Part shown: positions 13,990 through 18,545 of the stretch, one piece after another | How positions within the stretch are numbered: the stretch's first letter is position 1 | Layout of the letters: each line of letters begins with the position of its first letter | Assembly (NCBI RefSeq): GCF_028368995.1 | Contig: NZ_JAQNDL010000003.1 | Coordinates: 1,376,001 to 1,440,000, forward strand | DNA length: 64,000 nucleotides | Direction of reading: 5' to 3' | Source: Nannocystis bainbridge | GTDB lineage: Bacteria; Myxococcota_A; Polyangia; Nannocystales; Nannocystaceae | Position numbers and translations under genes: made by a program | The notes under the pieces: model-generated | Database searches by the model: none | What the model saw: only the letters and a program-made list of their open reading frames with translations | Told to the model about the DNA's origin: nothing

Positions 13990-14889
13990 TCAGAAGCGGA
14001 TTCCGCCCGGGTCGACGCGAGCGCGACAGCTCAGCAACGGCAGGTGATCCTCGCGCGGGTCCAGCGACCCGAGCGCCGCCCGGGCGATACCGAACGACTC
14101 CTGGAGATCTTTCCCCTTGCCGATCGCACGATAGAGAGCGCGCGAGAAGATCCTCGCCGCTTCGTCGGAGATTCTTTCTCTCATCCCCACCACCGCGTCG
14201 ACGCGCTCGGTCAGCACTGCCGTGGCCAGTCCGCTGAAACAAGCGTTGAGGACCACGCAGCGGGGTGGCTGGCGTAGCGCGCCGAGCAAACGCGCGAGAG
14301 CGTCGTAGCGCAGCCGGGTCGTCGATCCTTCCGCTCCGACGACCAGCATCGTCCCGTCCGAGCCGCCGTGACCCGCGAAGTGCAACAAGACCGGGTTGTG
14401 GTCGGTGATCAGATCGAAGGTCTGCTCCGCCGTGACGGACCACCCCCAGACCAACGAAAACCGCTCGCGGACAGGCCCCAGACCGAGCTCGTCTTCGATA
14501 TCGCCTGCTTCTCTTGCGAGCTCGAGCGGAGCTTGACCCTCCGGACAGGCCATGAGCACGAGCGCGACCTGCTTGTCCGTGACCGGACCTCCCGGACCTC
14601 CCGCCGGAAACGGGTCGAGCCCGAGGCAAGCGACCGCGGCTGTCCGCAGCGCGTCGTCATGCTTCCGAAACTCCCCCAGGCGCAGAAACAGTTCCCGCTC
14701 GAGGTAGCCGAACTGGCGCAGCCGCTCGATCACGGCAAACACGTACTGGTCGACCCCCACCACCGAATCCGGCAACCCGGCGGCGATGTCCGCGTAGTGC
14801 ATGGCGATGAACTGCCGCAAGTCGGGCAGCGATACCCGCTGGACGAGGTAGTGATGCAAGGGCTGAGGATACTGCGACACGGCTGCCAT
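13990..14889 (-). CDS. CHAT (caspase-like) protease with N-terminal helical effector-associated/death-like adaptor domain
   Basis: LLHFAGHG (His at 14368-14370) and VVLNACFS (Cys at 14239-14241) dyad; VGMRERISDEAARIFSRALY; first ~90 aa resemble the C-terminus of the neighbouring SAVED protein. Confidence 0.88.
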   Translation of the reverse strand: MAAVSQYPQPLHHYLVQRVSLPDLRQFIAMHYADIAAGLPDSVVGVDQYVFAVIERLRQFGYLERELFLRLGEFRKHDDALRTAAVACLGLDPFPAGGPGGPVTDKQVALVLMACPEGQAPLELAREAGDIEDELGLGPVRERFSLVWGWSVTAEQTFDLITDHNPVLLHFAGHGGSDGTMLVVGAEGSTTRLRYDALARLLGALRQPPRCVVLNACFSGLATAVLTERVDAVVGMRERISDEAARIFSRALYRAIGKGKDLQESFGIARAALGSLDPREDHLPLLSCRARVDPGGIRF

Positions 14890-14954
14890 TACTCAGAAGT
14901 GTAGGCCACGGCAGCGACCGATCACCTTGCCGGACGCGTCCTCGCGCTTTCAGC

Positions 14955-16034
14955 TCAACAGCCCCAGAGCACCGCGATTTCCTCGATCTCCGCCGCCCGG
15001 CTGGGCCGCGCCCTGCGCAGCGCTTCGAATAAGTTCGCGTCTACTTTGCCATGCCGCTTCAAGACATCCATCACTTGGTGGGCGACTCCGGCGAGTTCGG
15101 CTTCCCAAAGGATTTCCTTGACGAGTGAACTCAAGGATTCGGTCATGGCGAACAATCGTCGAAGGTCGGCGCTCTCGAAGGACCTCGCTAAGAAGTCGAC
15201 CAGCGCCTTCGCGGGTTCGGCGTCTCCTGCCCGGAGCTGGGGCGGCGCCGGCGACAAGAGGTCCAGAGTCGGCACGAACCCGCCCTTGTCGCGCTGATGG
15301 TCATAGACTCTCACGGGCGGATCCGCCTTGGGCAGGAAGCTCAGGCCGCACTGAACCGCCACGGCCACGGGCACGGCGGGGAACAGGTGGATCCGACAGC
15401 GTGGTCCGTGCGTCGCGCGAATTTTCGTCAGCAGATTCTGCCAGGCACTGGCGAAATCTTGCAGATGCGCCTCCGTGCGCACGGAGTCACGGCCCGGCTC
15501 CTCGACGGCGATCTCGTACATCGCACACGGACCCGGAGGCAGCACCGCCTCCGCCTCTTCCGGGTGCACCTTTCCGCTGATCGACAGTAACACCCCGACG
15601 TTCAAGCCTCGTGTTGTGTGGGTGACGACCTTGAAGGCCGACTGGTCCGGCCGCGAATCTCCCCACGTCCATCCAGCGGGCCTGTGGAACCGGTTGAACA
15701 CCCGGATCTCCTGCTTTTCGCCCAAGGCCTCACCGAGCACCATCAGGAGCGGGATTGGTGCGAGACCGAACACACTGATGCGCCGCACCGACGACTGCGC
15801 GACCTGCTGCAAGAACCCGCTCACCTTGCGCCGGATTTCGGAGGCCAACAACTTCCACGTCGCGGGCTCGTCGTCAGAAACCTCGAGATATGCGAGGTCG
15901 ATCTCCAGTCCTCCCGGGAGCGCCTCCCACGGCGGCAGGGCAGCCTGGATCTGCTCCTCGCTCCACAACCCCTTCTGACGGCCGATATTGGCGGAGAGGC
16001 GGATGACGTGGGTCTTCAGGGCGGGATCGTCCAT
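14955..16034 (-). CDS. SAVED cyclic-oligonucleotide sensor with C-terminal helical adaptor domain and no enzymatic effector
   Basis: SAVED motifs SVFGLAPIPLLMVLG, GWTW, LSISGKV, IHLFPAVPVAVAVQCG, YD...GGF; GAGGAG RBS just upstream; adaptor at ~14958-15221. Confidence 0.88.
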   Translation of the reverse strand: MDDPALKTHVIRLSANIGRQKGLWSEEQIQAALPPWEALPGGLEIDLAYLEVSDDEPATWKLLASEIRRKVSGFLQQVAQSSVRRISVFGLAPIPLLMVLGEALGEKQEIRVFNRFHRPAGWTWGDSRPDQSAFKVVTHTTRGLNVGVLLSISGKVHPEEAEAVLPPGPCAMYEIAVEEPGRDSVRTEAHLQDFASAWQNLLTKIRATHGPRCRIHLFPAVPVAVAVQCGLSFLPKADPPVRVYDHQRDKGGFVPTLDLLSPAPPQLRAGDAEPAKALVDFLARSFESADLRRLFAMTESLSSLVKEILWEAELAGVAHQVMDVLKRHGKVDANLFEALRRARPSRAAEIEEIAVLWGC

Positions 16035-17173: not shown

Positions 17174-17667
17174 TGGCCTCGACCTTCACGAACACGGAGG
17201 CCTCGACCTTCACCGAGGCTCGCGCGAGGGCCGTCATGGTGAAGATCTTCGTGGACTTCACCGCCATGAAGAACGCCGGGCTCATCTCGGCCGCGCGGGC
17301 TGACAACTGGCACGAGGTGTTGTTGTTCGGCCTGTATCAGGAGGCTATCGAAATGTTCCAGGTCGCGTTCACGAGCCCGGCAGGCCAGCAATGGGCCTTG
17401 GACTATCAGATCAAGGACGACGGCTCGGTCGCCACCGATCAGCGCCCTGGTGGCAACAATTACGCCGTTTTTCCTCAGGGGACCTCGGTCTGCCTGACCG
17501 TGCGAATGCGTCAGAAAGCGCGTGGCCGCCAGAAAGTCCTCGACTTCATGAAGCAGCATGGTTGGGGCATGGAAGGCACCATCTTGACCGGCGACGCCTA
17601 CGTCGACCGCCAATATTCCCAGAACGGTTACGGCGTGACCCGCACCAAAGTAGGAGAATGGAAATGA
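17173..17667 (+). CDS. cap7: Bacterial HORMA-domain protein
   Basis: S/T-rich N-tail then TFTEARAR, DQRPGG, C-terminal RQYSQNGYGVTR; TGATG overlap with cyclase; lies between cyclase and AAA+ gene. Confidence 0.82.
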   Translation: MASTFTNTEASTFTEARARAVMVKIFVDFTAMKNAGLISAARADNWHEVLLFGLYQEAIEMFQVAFTSPAGQQWALDYQIKDDGSVATDQRPGGNNYAVFPQGTSVCLTVRMRQKARGRQKVLDFMKQHGWGMEGTILTGDAYVDRQYSQNGYGVTRTKVGEWK

Positions 17668-18545
17668 GTGAGTTGACCCTCCTGGAGACCAAACACCCCG
17701 ACAAGTCCGCGAGGCGCCGGTTCGAGGGCCTCGTCGGCATCGACGCTCAGAAGCAACGCCTTCTCGACGACCTGGTCCTGATGTTCGCGCCGAAAGAGTT
17801 CGAAGATTGGCGCGCTCGGCATCATCCCCGCGGCCTTCCCTTCGCCGACGCGGGGGCTGCCAGCAGCCGCTTGCTGCTGTTGTCGGGCGAGGTCGGCTGC
17901 GGCAAGACGGCGCTCGCGTCCTCCGTGGCGACGCCGCTGGCGGAGCGGCTCGAGCAGCGGGTCCTCGTACTCGAGACGCCCTCCGACATCCGTGGCTGGG
18001 GCAAGGTCGGCGAGATCTCGGCGCGCCTCACCGACGCGTTCACGCAGGCCAAGGCCCGCGCGCGTGAATTTGATGCTGCCCTCCTCATCATCGACGAGGC
18101 CGACGACTTGGCTACCAGCCGCGCGCAGATGCAGGCCCACCACGAGGATCGCGCCGGACTCAACGTCCTCCTCAAGCAGCTGGACTTGCTGGCGCGCGAG
18201 AAAGTCCAACTGGTGACCGTGCTCATCACCAACCGAGCATCCGCGCTCGATCCGGCGCTCCTTCGTCGAGCGGCATCACACCTGAAGTTCACCCGCCCCG
18301 ATGCCGACGCCCGGGCGGCTCTGTTCCACTCCATGCTGCACAAGACCTCGACCACGGAGCGCGACATCAAGGCTCTGGTCGAGGCCAGCGAGCGCGAGGT
18401 TCCCTTCAGCTACTCGGATCTGACCGAGCGCCTCGGCCGTCAGGCGCTCCGCCGGGCATGGAGCGCCGATCGTGCGTTCGACGCCGCCATCCTGCGGGAG
18501 ACGCTCGCGGAGTTGGAGCCCTCACCGCTCATCGAGGTCGCGTGA
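17664..18545 (+). CDS. cap6: TRIP13/Pch2-like AAA+ ATPase
   Basis: Walker A GEVGCGKT, RGWGKVGE, Walker B LLIIDEAD, HHEDRAGLN, TNR...LDPALLRR; ATGA overlap with HORMA. Confidence 0.9.
   Translation: MSELTLLETKHPDKSARRRFEGLVGIDAQKQRLLDDLVLMFAPKEFEDWRARHHPRGLPFADAGAASSRLLLLSGEVGCGKTALASSVATPLAERLEQRVLVLETPSDIRGWGKVGEISARLTDAFTQAKARAREFDAALLIIDEADDLATSRAQMQAHHEDRAGLNVLLKQLDLLAREKVQLVTVLITNRASALDPALLRRAASHLKFTRPDADARAALFHSMLHKTSTTERDIKALVEASEREVPFSYSDLTERLGRQALRRAWSADRAFDAAILRETLAELEPSPLIEVA

Follow-up and report, generated by a model that had tools for sequence, protein, structure and literature searches.

A type III CBASS cassette of Nannocystis bainbridge in which a SAVED sensor and a CHAT protease are separate proteins with related adaptor domains

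Gene content and setting of the cassette

The stretch of DNA analysed here (the window, 64,000 nucleotides) comes from the soil myxobacterium Nannocystis bainbridge and carries, at positions 13990-18545, a five-gene cassette of the anti-phage type, in which all five reading frames are intact. The CD-NTase, HORMA and TRIP13-like genes lie on the (+) strand, and the SAVED and CHAT genes diverge from them on the (-) strand. The G+C content of the cassette is 64-66%, against 70-77% in its surroundings.

The (+) strand genes bear the signature of a type III CBASS, namely a CD-NTase, a HORMA protein and a TRIP13 whose stop and start codons overlap. The CD-NTase (16094..17173, +) is of the CdnC type: it matches Pfam SMODS (E 3.4e-13), the PADLOC cyclase model PDLC00791 (E 7.7e-127) and the CdnC of E. 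coli MS115-1 (PDB 6P80, E 3.1e-23), and its nucleotidyltransferase motifs are intact, with the GS...GT, DxD (DVD) and third-Asp (FDLVP) stretches aligning with those of 6P80. Its real start may be later, because the matches begin only at residue 19-21. The HORMA protein (17170..17667, +; Pfam bacHORMA_1, E 1.1e-29) comes next, followed by the TRIP13/Pch2-like AAA+ ATPase (17658..18545, +; Pfam AAA; PADLOC TRIP13 PDLC00914, E 2.4e-92), which matches the PDB entries 6PB3 (E 8.5e-44) and 6P8V (E 6.6e-41) and starts at the ATG at 17664 or at an additional ATG at 17658. The final A of the CD-NTase stop TGA (17171-17173) is also the first letter of the ATG at 17173-17175, and the HORMA stop TGA (17665-17667) overlaps the ATG at 17664-17666 as ATGA. 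The coupled operon that a sequence-only reading had proposed is thus borne out by the Pfam and PADLOC calls and by the overlapping codons. The same reading had seen no effector gene after TRIP13, and indeed the next gene encodes a convergent DUF4056 protein (18694-20019, -). Among the neighbouring genes checked there is no effector gene 3' of TRIP13 and no other one flanking the block, and no gene for NucC or another nuclease was found at the locus.

On the other strand, the SAVED-adaptor gene (14955..16034, -; 359 aa) matches Pfam SAVED over residues 68-259 (E 7.8e-43), and the adaptor-CHAT gene (13990..14889, -; 299 aa) matches Pfam CHAT over residues 162-273 (E 4.9e-9). The divergent pair of SAVED plus helical domain and helical domain plus CHAT, which had been read from the sequence alone, is recovered by these two models and by the profile comparison of the helical domains given below. 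SAVED and CHAT are not part of a single polypeptide here, since the two genes are separated by a spacer of 65 nt (14890..14954, -), which holds one copy of the motif CGATCACCTTGC at 14919-14930. The divergent intergenic region (16035..16093) contains a palindrome made of two inverted CGATCACCTCGC copies, at 16068-16079 and 16082-16093, and this is the sole closely spaced inverted pair of that motif in the whole 11-Mb genome.

The top PADLOC matches of the SAVED protein are endonuclease-SAVED effector models, which cover the SAVED part only. Among solved structures its best sequence match is 7RWK (E 6.8e-33), and the nearest solved SAVED relatives are endonuclease-SAVED proteins. On binding their ligand, such proteins may take an oligomeric state other than a filament. 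Pfam-type domain searches found no enzymatic domain in the SAVED protein, and its structural model has a mean pLDDT of 44.4, with the C-terminal adaptor predicted to be helical at low confidence. The CHAT protein begins with an EAD1/7-like adaptor, continues with a Pro/Gly linker and ends in a caspase-like CHAT domain. Its homologues retain the sequence that precedes the shorter start given in the database, which supports the ATG at 14889 as the start. A search of 5.8 billion proteins returned 13 full-length adaptor-CHAT homologues (51-88% identity), against only 3 other SAVED-adaptor proteins of the cassette type. The CHAT His and Cys, which had been described as intact, are invariant in 14/14 aligned homologues: these are H160, H164, C201 and C207 of the HFAGHGG and LNACFSG stretches (numbered on P0001; positions in the 299-aa frame are higher by 10). 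By analogy with caspase motifs, H164 and C207 are the putative catalytic dyad. The AlphaFold2 model of the protein, which starts 10 residues into the 299-aa frame, has a mean pLDDT of 79.2; its adaptor forms six helices, with blocks 1-80 at pLDDT 81-92, while residues 87-94 and 106-117 are below 50. Compared with solved structures by Foldseek, this model is best matched by 8TL0, an activated SAVED-CHAT filament (E 3.7e-12, 21% identity), and then by caspases.

The five genes behave as one insertion/deletion unit, present or absent together between the same flanks in congeners. Beyond the CHAT gene lies a gene for a HupE/UreJ membrane protein; the HupE and DUF4056 genes are 400-760 bp apart in 4 of the 5 congeners examined, and the entire five-gene block sits between them in G000 and G439. 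A search of 11 genomes of the genus found the cassette in 2. In the second of them (L001) the SAVED frame is broken by a frameshift, which may be an assembly error.

Two related adaptors and a fused relative

The adaptors are non-enzymatic domains of about 85-93 residues, located at the C-terminus of the SAVED protein and at the N-terminus of the CHAT protein, and flexible Pro/Gly linkers flank both of them. The evidence for the SAVED-side adaptor (residues 272-359; 14958..15221, -) comes from hhalign, reciprocal HMM searches and the ESM Atlas, and that for the CHAT-side adaptor (residues 1-93; 14611..14889, -), predicted to be all-helical, from the AlphaFold2 model and a profile search. Single-sequence phmmer finds no match between them in either direction, and BLASTP finds none. 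Compared as profiles, they align with a probability of 95.9% (hhalign; E 5.9e-9, 68 columns, 19% identity). HMM searches succeed in both directions, from the CHAT side to the SAVED C-terminus of locus L001 (E 1.9e-6) and from the SAVED side to the CHAT N-terminus of L004 (E 6.1e-4). On these profile comparisons, the two helical domains are homologous.

The CHAT-side profile recovers 153 representative proteins at E <= 1e-3. Among the 142 that were scanned, Pfam recognises EAD1 in 10 and EAD7 in 3, and the other partners are CHAT (11), TIR_2 (10), Pkinase (7), FGE-sulfatase (5), iSTAND (4), nSTAND1 (4) and SAVED (1); judged by this domain company, the adaptor class is modular across proteins. 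The ESM Atlas clusters nearest to the SAVED-side adaptor carry EAD7 or EAD1 (scores 0.91-0.93). Searched by itself, neither adaptor has a Pfam match at E <= 10, EAD models included, and it is indirectly, through the profile-recovered proteins and the Atlas clusters, that both can be assigned to the EAD1/EAD7 class. The adaptor profile has no match among PDB sequences at E <= 10.

That the two helical domains are related agrees with the sequence-only reading; the adaptor idea it put forward is not new, as homotypic coupling was proposed for domains of this class in 2020 (PMC7159879). In the text of that report available to us, such a domain is recognised by its presence both on a core component and on an effector whose gene is adjacent, together with a direct fusion of the effector elsewhere. 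All three are seen here, with the SAVED adaptor, the neighbouring CHAT adaptor and a fused relative termed P0017. No experimental test of EAD homotypic coupling was found in the literature searched.

P0017 is a metagenomic protein in which SAVED and CHAT are fused directly. Its residues 5-272 are 62% identical to SAVED residues 7-266, and its residues 279-472 are 64% identical, over 194 residues, to the CHAT catalytic module (residues 106-299; 13993..14574, -). Only six residues separate its two parts, where two adaptors would sit. Since CHAT there replaces both adaptors, P0017 points to CHAT as the output, and we infer that the CHAT protein is the output of the SAVED sensor, which itself carries no fused effector domain. 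A functional link between SAVED and CHAT is thus supported by the homology of the adaptors, by the direct fusion in P0017 and by the five genes moving as one unit. According to the available text (10.1101/2023.06.23.546230), the fused SAVED-CHAT that has been characterised works as an activated protease. It had been assigned in the sequence-only reading to a type III CRISPR system; this holds, and according to the same text SAVED-CHAT also adjoins CD-NTases in four operons.

Working model and competing readings

We consider the cassette to be a horizontally acquired type III CBASS, with a two-polypeptide SAVED/CHAT effector joined by EAD1/EAD7-class adaptors instead of a peptide bond, and we give this reading a probability of about 0.58. 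In E. coli MS115-1, peptide binding by HORMA reportedly activates CdnC, while Trip13 keeps HORMA off (Ye et al. 2020). By analogy, HORMA would bind a peptide upon phage infection and activate the CdnC-like CD-NTase, the TRIP13-like ATPase restraining it otherwise. The CD-NTase would make a cyclic oligonucleotide, for which cyclic tri-AMP is the best guess from CdnC homology, and the SAVED domain would bind this signal and oligomerise. The CHAT-side adaptor would bind the SAVED-side adaptor, either constantly or by avidity after SAVED oligomerisation, which would gather and activate the CHAT domains as in the fused SAVED-CHAT filament, and the protease would then cleave host or phage proteins, halting infection. 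What the analysis establishes is which domains are present, that the adaptors are homologous, that a directly fused relative exists and that the five genes are inherited together; the steps of the model, adaptor-adaptor binding and ligand-induced recruitment included, are presumed. To our knowledge, the known CBASS effectors combine nucleotide sensing and killing in one polypeptide. With a separate sensor and protease, apparently joined by adaptors, the effector would be exchangeable and one signal could reach several effectors.

Two results cut against the simplest forms of this reading. The genome holds 13 such adaptor ORFs, with Trypsin_2, CHAT, SAVED, FGE-sulfatase or nothing recognised by Pfam as partner, and one of its adaptor-CHAT genes adjoins a C14 caspase and a Ser/Thr kinase, as in the Haliangium PCaspase cascade. 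The two cassette adaptors are the least alike of these 13: they share 17% identity, and each ranks last among the 12 domains compared with the other. This departs from the tendency of adjacent EAD copies to be the closest pair, as described in the published EAD texts available to us, and cuts against simple adaptor-adaptor recruitment. In addition, SAVED or CD-NTase was found near only 1 of 17 other adaptor-CHAT loci in the flanks examined, the relatives L003 (57%) and L146 (52%, congeneric) having neither in theirs. Adaptor-CHAT genes mostly without CBASS cut against a simple recruitment of CHAT by SAVED, and the sequence-only reading had itself stated that it would fall if the two did not co-occur, which at the family level is largely what is observed. 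It could be that the adaptors are not a private pair but belong to a genome-wide network, in which the SAVED-adaptor signals mainly to effectors elsewhere, namely a second adaptor-CHAT, an adaptor-trypsin, an adaptor-FGE-sulfatase and seven of no recognised type, and the CHAT protein may answer other sensors. Other loci speak for this: SAVED with an adaptor as the only detected domains occurs in type II CBASS of three genomes (G000, G433, G435) and beside a CD-NTase in a two-gene locus of G439, and around each of these genes the adaptor HMM found no further adaptor ORF over about 8 kb. Organisms are also described, in the part of the 2020 report available, as encoding many copies of one EAD, near and away from the core system (PMC7159879). 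The joint gain and loss of the five genes and the fusion in P0017 of exactly these SAVED and CHAT modules speak for a private pair instead, and we regard the network as rather unlikely to be the main explanation of the cassette. The best identity of the cassette adaptors to the resident ones is 31% and 29%, compared with 31-44% for 9 of the 11 others, and this outlier status suits an imported insulated pair and a non-pair equally.

For the genus as a whole, we tentatively raise the possibility that the SAVED receptors of CBASS serve as hubs in a network akin to death-domain signalling, where SAVED oligomers formed in response to a cyclic oligonucleotide would nucleate adaptor assemblies recruiting tagged effectors from neighbouring or distant genes. 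Such hubs might be shared by type III CBASS with HORMA/TRIP13, type II CBASS with E1/E2 and the two-gene form, and the candidate effectors could be two CHAT proteases, one trypsin-like protease, one protein with an FGE-sulfatase domain and seven proteins of no recognised type. If true, bacteria would have their own version of inflammasome-type assembly, with a small-molecule second messenger as its trigger.

The CBASS loci of the genus that have a SAVED-adaptor and no adjacent effector would also suit a SAVED-adaptor that acts as the output in its own right, for instance if its adaptor polymerised when the ligand binds, with CHAT as a regulator trimming or resetting the system rather than a killer. 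Self-templated polymers were proposed in 2021 as one possible EAD function, in the text available (PMC8195603). Nothing was found to indicate that adaptors of this class are toxic or polymerise, CHAT stands in place of both adaptors in P0017, and the characterised fused SAVED-CHAT is, as noted, an activated protease, so that we hold this reading to be improbable. A decaying or silent remnant without present function seems equally improbable, or slightly more so: the cassette is rare and its one other known copy in the genus has a split SAVED frame, but that split may come from the assembly, and the window retains five intact frames, conserved catalytic motifs and overlapping stop and start codons.

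Relation to known immune systems

The cassette combines known kinds of systems, namely type III CBASS, SAVED-CHAT and EAD coupling, and we found no described CBASS with a split SAVED/CHAT layout in the literature searched. Its signal-generating half has the same make-up as that of the E. coli MS115-1 type III CBASS (CdnC, HORMA, Trip13, NucC), whereas its output is a SAVED sensor with a separate CHAT protease instead of NucC, and the genes for these two run away from the cyclase operon instead of lying 3' of it. With the fused SAVED-CHAT of the Haliangium ochraceum type III-B CRISPR/CBASS hybrid (8TL0) it shares the pairing of a SAVED sensor with a caspase-like CHAT protease. Here, however, the modules are separate proteins with one adaptor each, SAVED is nearer by sequence to endonuclease-SAVED proteins, and the cassette has no PCaspase, sigma factor or kinase gene.

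The EAD conflict systems (Kaur, Burroughs, Iyer, Aravind, eLife 2020, 2021) likewise carry the same terminal helical domain on a core and on a neighbouring effector, and, in the published text available, their partners are those of the adaptor class found here: CHAT/caspase, TIR, kinase, FGE-sulfatase, trypsin, PNPase and iSTAND. The cores described there are VMAP, iSTAND, Ubl and GAP1 proteins and not a CBASS SAVED sensor, and adjacent copies are usually the closest, unlike those of the cassette. The word SAVED occurs once in the main text of 2020 and is absent from the 2021 paper; the source data may list SAVED with EAD. The cassette offers a defined, compact, ligand-triggered system suited to probing the 2020 proposal of homotypic coupling.

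In the bacterial gasdermin systems (Wein et al., PMC10312443), as far as the available text goes, the adaptor is also C-terminal on the sensor and N-terminal on the protease, and experiment showed the CARD-like domain to be required for defence. Those systems have a solved Death-fold CARD-like adaptor, an NLR-like sensor and a gasdermin output, while here the adaptor is of the EAD1/7 class and the sensor is a cyclic-oligonucleotide receptor. The animal inflammasome and apoptosome (receptor-CARD/PYD, CARD-caspases) follow the logic proposed for the cassette, in which a sensor oligomerises on its ligand, helical adaptors pair homotypically and a caspase-fold protease is activated by proximity; this likeness is an analogy only, the CHAT-side adaptor being modelled with six helices and having no PDB sequence match. 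If adaptors do recruit a caspase-fold protease to an oligomerising receptor, the parallel between bacterial and animal innate immunity would reach beyond NLR-type sensors and take in second-messenger receptors.

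The cassette, its flanks and its inheritance

The five genes of the cassette (13990-18545) form an operon and a divergent pair. On the forward strand, the CD-NTase gene (16094-17173, 359 aa; SMODS, E 3.4e-13; PADLOC cyclase, E 7.7e-127) is followed by the HORMA gene (17170-17667, 165 aa; bacHORMA_1, E 1.1e-29) and by a TRIP13-like ATPase gene (17661-18545, 294 aa; PADLOC TRIP13, E 2.4e-92). One base is common to the CD-NTase stop and the HORMA ATG, and the stop of the HORMA gene and an ATG of the TRIP13 gene overlap within an ATGA. The reverse strand carries the SAVED gene (14955-16034, 359 aa; Pfam SAVED, E 7.8e-43) and the CHAT gene (13990-14889, 299 aa; Pfam CHAT, E 4.9e-9). 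The layout proposed in the sequence-only reading, a CD-NTase/HORMA/TRIP13 operon with divergent SAVED-adaptor and adaptor-CHAT genes, is thus confirmed by Pfam, by PADLOC and by the overlapping stop and start codons. By sequence, the nearest solved relative of the cyclase is CdnC of E. coli MS115-1 (6P80, E 3.1e-23), with which its GS...GT, DxD and third-Asp stretches line up, and those of the ATPase are the bacterial CBASS Pch2/Trip13 proteins 6PB3 and 6P8V. The SAVED domain is closest to endonuclease-linked SAVED (7RWK, E 6.8e-33), and PADLOC endonuclease-SAVED models also match it; the HORMA protein matched no PDB sequence at E <= 0.01.

The cassette is flanked on one side by genes for a HupE/UreJ membrane protein and an alpha/beta hydrolase, and on the other by genes for a DUF4056 protein and a phosphodiesterase-like protein; there is no nuclease or other effector among these flanking genes. 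The nearest named homologues come from Nannocystis. Nannocystis sp. RBIL2 (locus L001) has these five genes as well, bounded by the same neighbours, and in four of five further congeners the gap between HupE and DUF4056 is just 400-760 bp; in the fifth, the fetched stretch showed no HupE. Since the flanks adjoin in congeners devoid of the cassette, the five genes were gained or lost as one block, which agrees with their lower G+C (64-66% across 14000-18500, against about 72% for the window). In L001 a frameshift splits the SAVED-adaptor orthologue (6825-7618) over two frames, its first 82 or so residues lying in another frame. This split explains a 272-aa database entry (P0042) and reflects either a pseudogene or a mistake in the assembly.

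Two long frames that overlap real genes, 12797-14629 (-), which runs into the CHAT gene, and 18643-21630 (+), are high-G+C artefacts: only 12797-13900 of the former matches a family (HupE/UreJ), and only 20017-21630 of the latter (phosphodiesterase-like). A gene for a Ser/Thr protein kinase (8624-9721, +), at a distance of 4.3 kb from CHAT, falls outside both the low-G+C block and the insertion/deletion unit and so probably has no connection with the cassette, even though kinase genes are found with many adaptor-CHAT genes elsewhere. A promoter and terminator scan gave nothing above shuffled sequences, no flanking direct repeats stood out as marks of an integration site, and a sequencing-run search returned no RNA run and three DNA runs, each with a small share (0.05-0.15) of the words. 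The 12-nt motif CGATCACCTYGC has 5 copies in the window, against 0.01 expected, and 56 in the genome. Two of them form a palindrome with 2-nt spacing (16068-16093) in the divergent promoter region of the cassette, a single copy (14919-14930) lies in the SAVED-CHAT spacer, where L001 also keeps one, and the others are at 6047-6058 and 37703-37714. The motif may be the operator of a regulator.

Two divergent adaptors of one class

The SAVED protein extends about 90 residues beyond its SAVED domain and the CHAT protein has about 95 residues ahead of its CHAT domain, each extension being set off by a Pro/Gly-rich linker. The homology of these two adaptors is visible to profiles only. BLASTP of one against the other gave nothing at E <= 100, Pfam found no family in either alone at E <= 10, EAD (effector-associated domain) models included, and a word-indexed search with the SAVED-side adaptor recovered only the query itself (one of 609 candidates). 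When alignments of 14 CHAT-side and 4 SAVED-side copies were compared by hhalign, they matched with a probability of 95.9% (E 5.9e-9, 68 columns, 19% identity), and in related loci the HMM of each adaptor picked up the other one (E 1.9e-6 and E 6.1e-4).

Searched against 1.84 billion representatives, the CHAT-side profile found 153 proteins at E <= 1e-3, of 81 to 2954 residues, with the adaptor at either the N- or the C-terminus. Pfam was run on 142 of the 150 listed, leaving out seven longer than 1000 aa and the representative of the family itself. The families found in these 142 were CHAT (11), TIR_2 (10), Pkinase (7), TIR (6), FGE-sulfatase (5), EAD1 (10), EAD7 (3), iSTAND (4), nSTAND1 (4), PNP_UDP_1 (3) and SIR2_2 (2), with single cases of SAVED, Trypsin_2 and Peptidase_C14. 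By phmmer, the SAVED-side adaptor alone matches most of these proteins too, and the ESM Atlas clusters closest to it have EAD7 or EAD1 (scores 0.91-0.93). AlphaFold2 models the CHAT-side adaptor as six helices (pLDDT 81-92) followed by a disordered linker (mean pLDDT of the CHAT protein 79.2); the model of the SAVED-adaptor protein, built from a 4-row alignment, is too poor to be of use (mean pLDDT 44.4). The adaptor profile matched no PDB sequence at E <= 10. From the profile, phmmer, ESM Atlas and model results, both adaptors are divergent members of the EAD1/EAD7 class, which was defined by Kaur et al. 2020 together with the proposal that such domains couple effectors to a core homotypically (PMC7159879).

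Two of the ESM Atlas clusters nearest the SAVED-side adaptor consist of short proteins (65-79 aa), with Uroviricota the commonest phylum among the few placed members. The 79-aa cluster has EAD7 on 10% of its members, whereas no Pfam family is common in the 65-aa one. Phage proteins made of the adaptor alone could act as decoys against such systems, which we offer as a lead only.

A private pair or a shared network

We favor a type III CBASS whose effector is a non-covalent SAVED/CHAT protease, with a probability of roughly 0.58. One line of evidence that joins sensor to protease is a fused relative. The metagenomic protein P0017 (472 aa) aligns through residues 5-272 with SAVED residues 7-266 (62% identity) and through residues 279-472 with CHAT residues 106-299 (64% identity), so that six residues stand in place of the linker-adaptor and adaptor-linker of the split form. 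Among solved structures, the CHAT model matches the activated SAVED-CHAT filament 8TL0 best (E 3.7e-12), with animal caspases and MALT1 ranking below it. The CHAT module of the cassette has a further fusion partner in SIR2_2 (63-66% identity; 499 aa), and a representative from elsewhere is a SIR2-SAVED-adaptor protein of 693 aa (P0133; the other proteins with such fusions are P0015, P0016, P0037 and P0038, and the loci L005 and L006). Because of these fusions, CHAT, SAVED, SIR2 and the adaptor seem to have been shuffled at short evolutionary distance.

We infer which ligand is made and that it binds, how the protease is activated, what it cleaves and that the cassette serves defence. HORMA and TRIP13 would gate the CdnC-like cyclase, whose product, probably cyclic tri-adenylate by homology, would bind SAVED and induce its oligomerisation. 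The adaptor pair would keep CHAT tethered to SAVED at all times or, through avidity, only after SAVED has formed oligomers, and clustering would then render the protease active, as it does in fused SAVED-CHAT filaments (10.1101/2023.06.23.546230).

The main alternative, which we find rather improbable, is that the adaptors serve a genome-wide network and not a private pair. The source genome (11.05 Mb) holds 13 adaptor ORFs among 78,910 six-frame ORFs of at least 70 aa, and the two of the cassette are mutually the least similar of all (17% identity), with no phmmer match in either direction, while the published rule is that adjacent EAD copies tend to be closest (PMC7159879). Their best identities to the others are 31% and 29%, and nine of the 11 others reach 31-44%. 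This outlier status could mark an imported, insulated pair or, equally, non-partners. The net charges of the 13 adaptors display no complementarity. Complex prediction with SAVED-side residues 266-359 and the CHAT-side alignment scored 0.14 and 0.17, where the mark is 0.32, in runs without controls, and it counts neither for nor against pairing. The sequence-only reading had also tied its proposal to co-occurrence of CHAT with SAVED or CD-NTase in homologue neighbourhoods, and at family level this went largely against it: of 17 further adaptor-CHAT loci, viewed with as much as 8 kb of flank (the family survey gave 14, to which L001, L003 and L095 were added), L001 alone has either gene nearby. 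A C14 caspase gene adjoins seven of the 17, a Ser/Thr kinase of the L095 type is found in 11 and a second adaptor ORF in six. No CBASS accompanies the 57% relative in L003, a metagenome contig of 10.4 kb, and a 52% relative in a congener (L146) adjoins a kinase; a large protein search gave 13 full-length adaptor-CHAT homologues and only three SAVED-adaptor homologues. What speaks for the non-covalent SAVED/CHAT effector is the architecture, the homology of the adaptors, the fused relative and the co-inheritance of the five genes, so that the split effector of the sequence-only reading stands in these respects and is weakened by the dissimilarity of its adaptors. A reading in which the adaptor itself is the output seems very improbable to us, and an inert cassette marginally more so.

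In L003, the adaptor-CHAT gene (4246-5133) sits between a SIR2_2 gene (1-1074) and a gene (7356-8324) for a protein of 322 aa that begins with an adaptor and whose C-terminal part matches nothing recognised. The L095 module of the source genome (contig C2, about 2228660-2237790; L095 3661-12787) comprises a Ser/Thr kinase-TPR protein, a C14 caspase (688 aa), the second adaptor-CHAT, an adaptor-FGE-sulfatase and an FGE-sulfatase. Besides the adaptor-CHAT and the adaptor-FGE-sulfatase of this module, the genome encodes an adaptor-trypsin and seven adaptor proteins with partners of no recognised type; the six of these that were scanned (all but L092) match no Pfam family. One ORF (contig C2 1684937-1686490, 518 aa, adaptor at residues 339-415, no recognised partner) is the nearest relative of five other adaptor ORFs.

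A second SAVED-adaptor protein, with the adaptor at its N-terminus, is encoded on contig C1 (2917944-2919071), convergent with a DncV-like CD-NTase gene and a gene for an E1/E2 (ThiF + Prok-E2_B) fusion, i.e. a type II CBASS (L094, 8945-12844). The adaptor HMM found no adaptor-tagged effector around it in a 19-kb stretch (about 9 kb on each side). This type II layout with SAVED-adaptor recurs in two congeners, G433 (L175) and G435 (L176), and G439, the strain that carries L001, has a two-gene locus (L174) with a CD-NTase gene followed by a SAVED-adaptor gene; the adaptor HMM found no second adaptor ORF in the fetched flanks of these three loci. Among 400 sampled genomes of other Myxococcota, none of 15 related SAVED ORFs has an adaptor. 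That SAVED receptors of three CBASS types serve as hubs in a network of adaptors is possible, but we hold this idea as doubtful.

Relation to known systems

CBASS, HORMA and "CHAT domain" were not found together in any paper of the literature search, nor were EAD1 and "SAVED domain", and no description of the split SAVED/CHAT layout was found in the literature searched; older surveys and supplements outside it may list such architectures. Fusions of the SAVED-like Csx15 to EADs are mentioned in one sentence of a 2026 preprint (10.64898/2026.10.26.761840). The cassette is not categorically new: it is made of published parts, and its key step is a proposed one.

The signal half of the cassette is a regular example of type III CBASS. 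Its output resembles that of the fused SAVED-CHAT proteases, but without the single chain that defines them. The L095 module is reminiscent of Haliangium ochraceum, in which PCaspase/PCk genes adjoin SAVED-CHAT, except that the adaptor replaces SAVED. Three of the four architectural features of the EAD principle are present in the cassette, and the fourth, that adjacent copies are closest, fails. The gasdermin systems, in which a CARD-like pair is carried by an NLR-like sensor and a protease, provide an experimentally supported bacterial parallel (PMC10312443), and the likeness to inflammasomes is to be taken as an analogy. For CBASS the layout is an unusual one, and as a compact system triggered by a ligand it lends itself to tests of the EAD coupling hypothesis.
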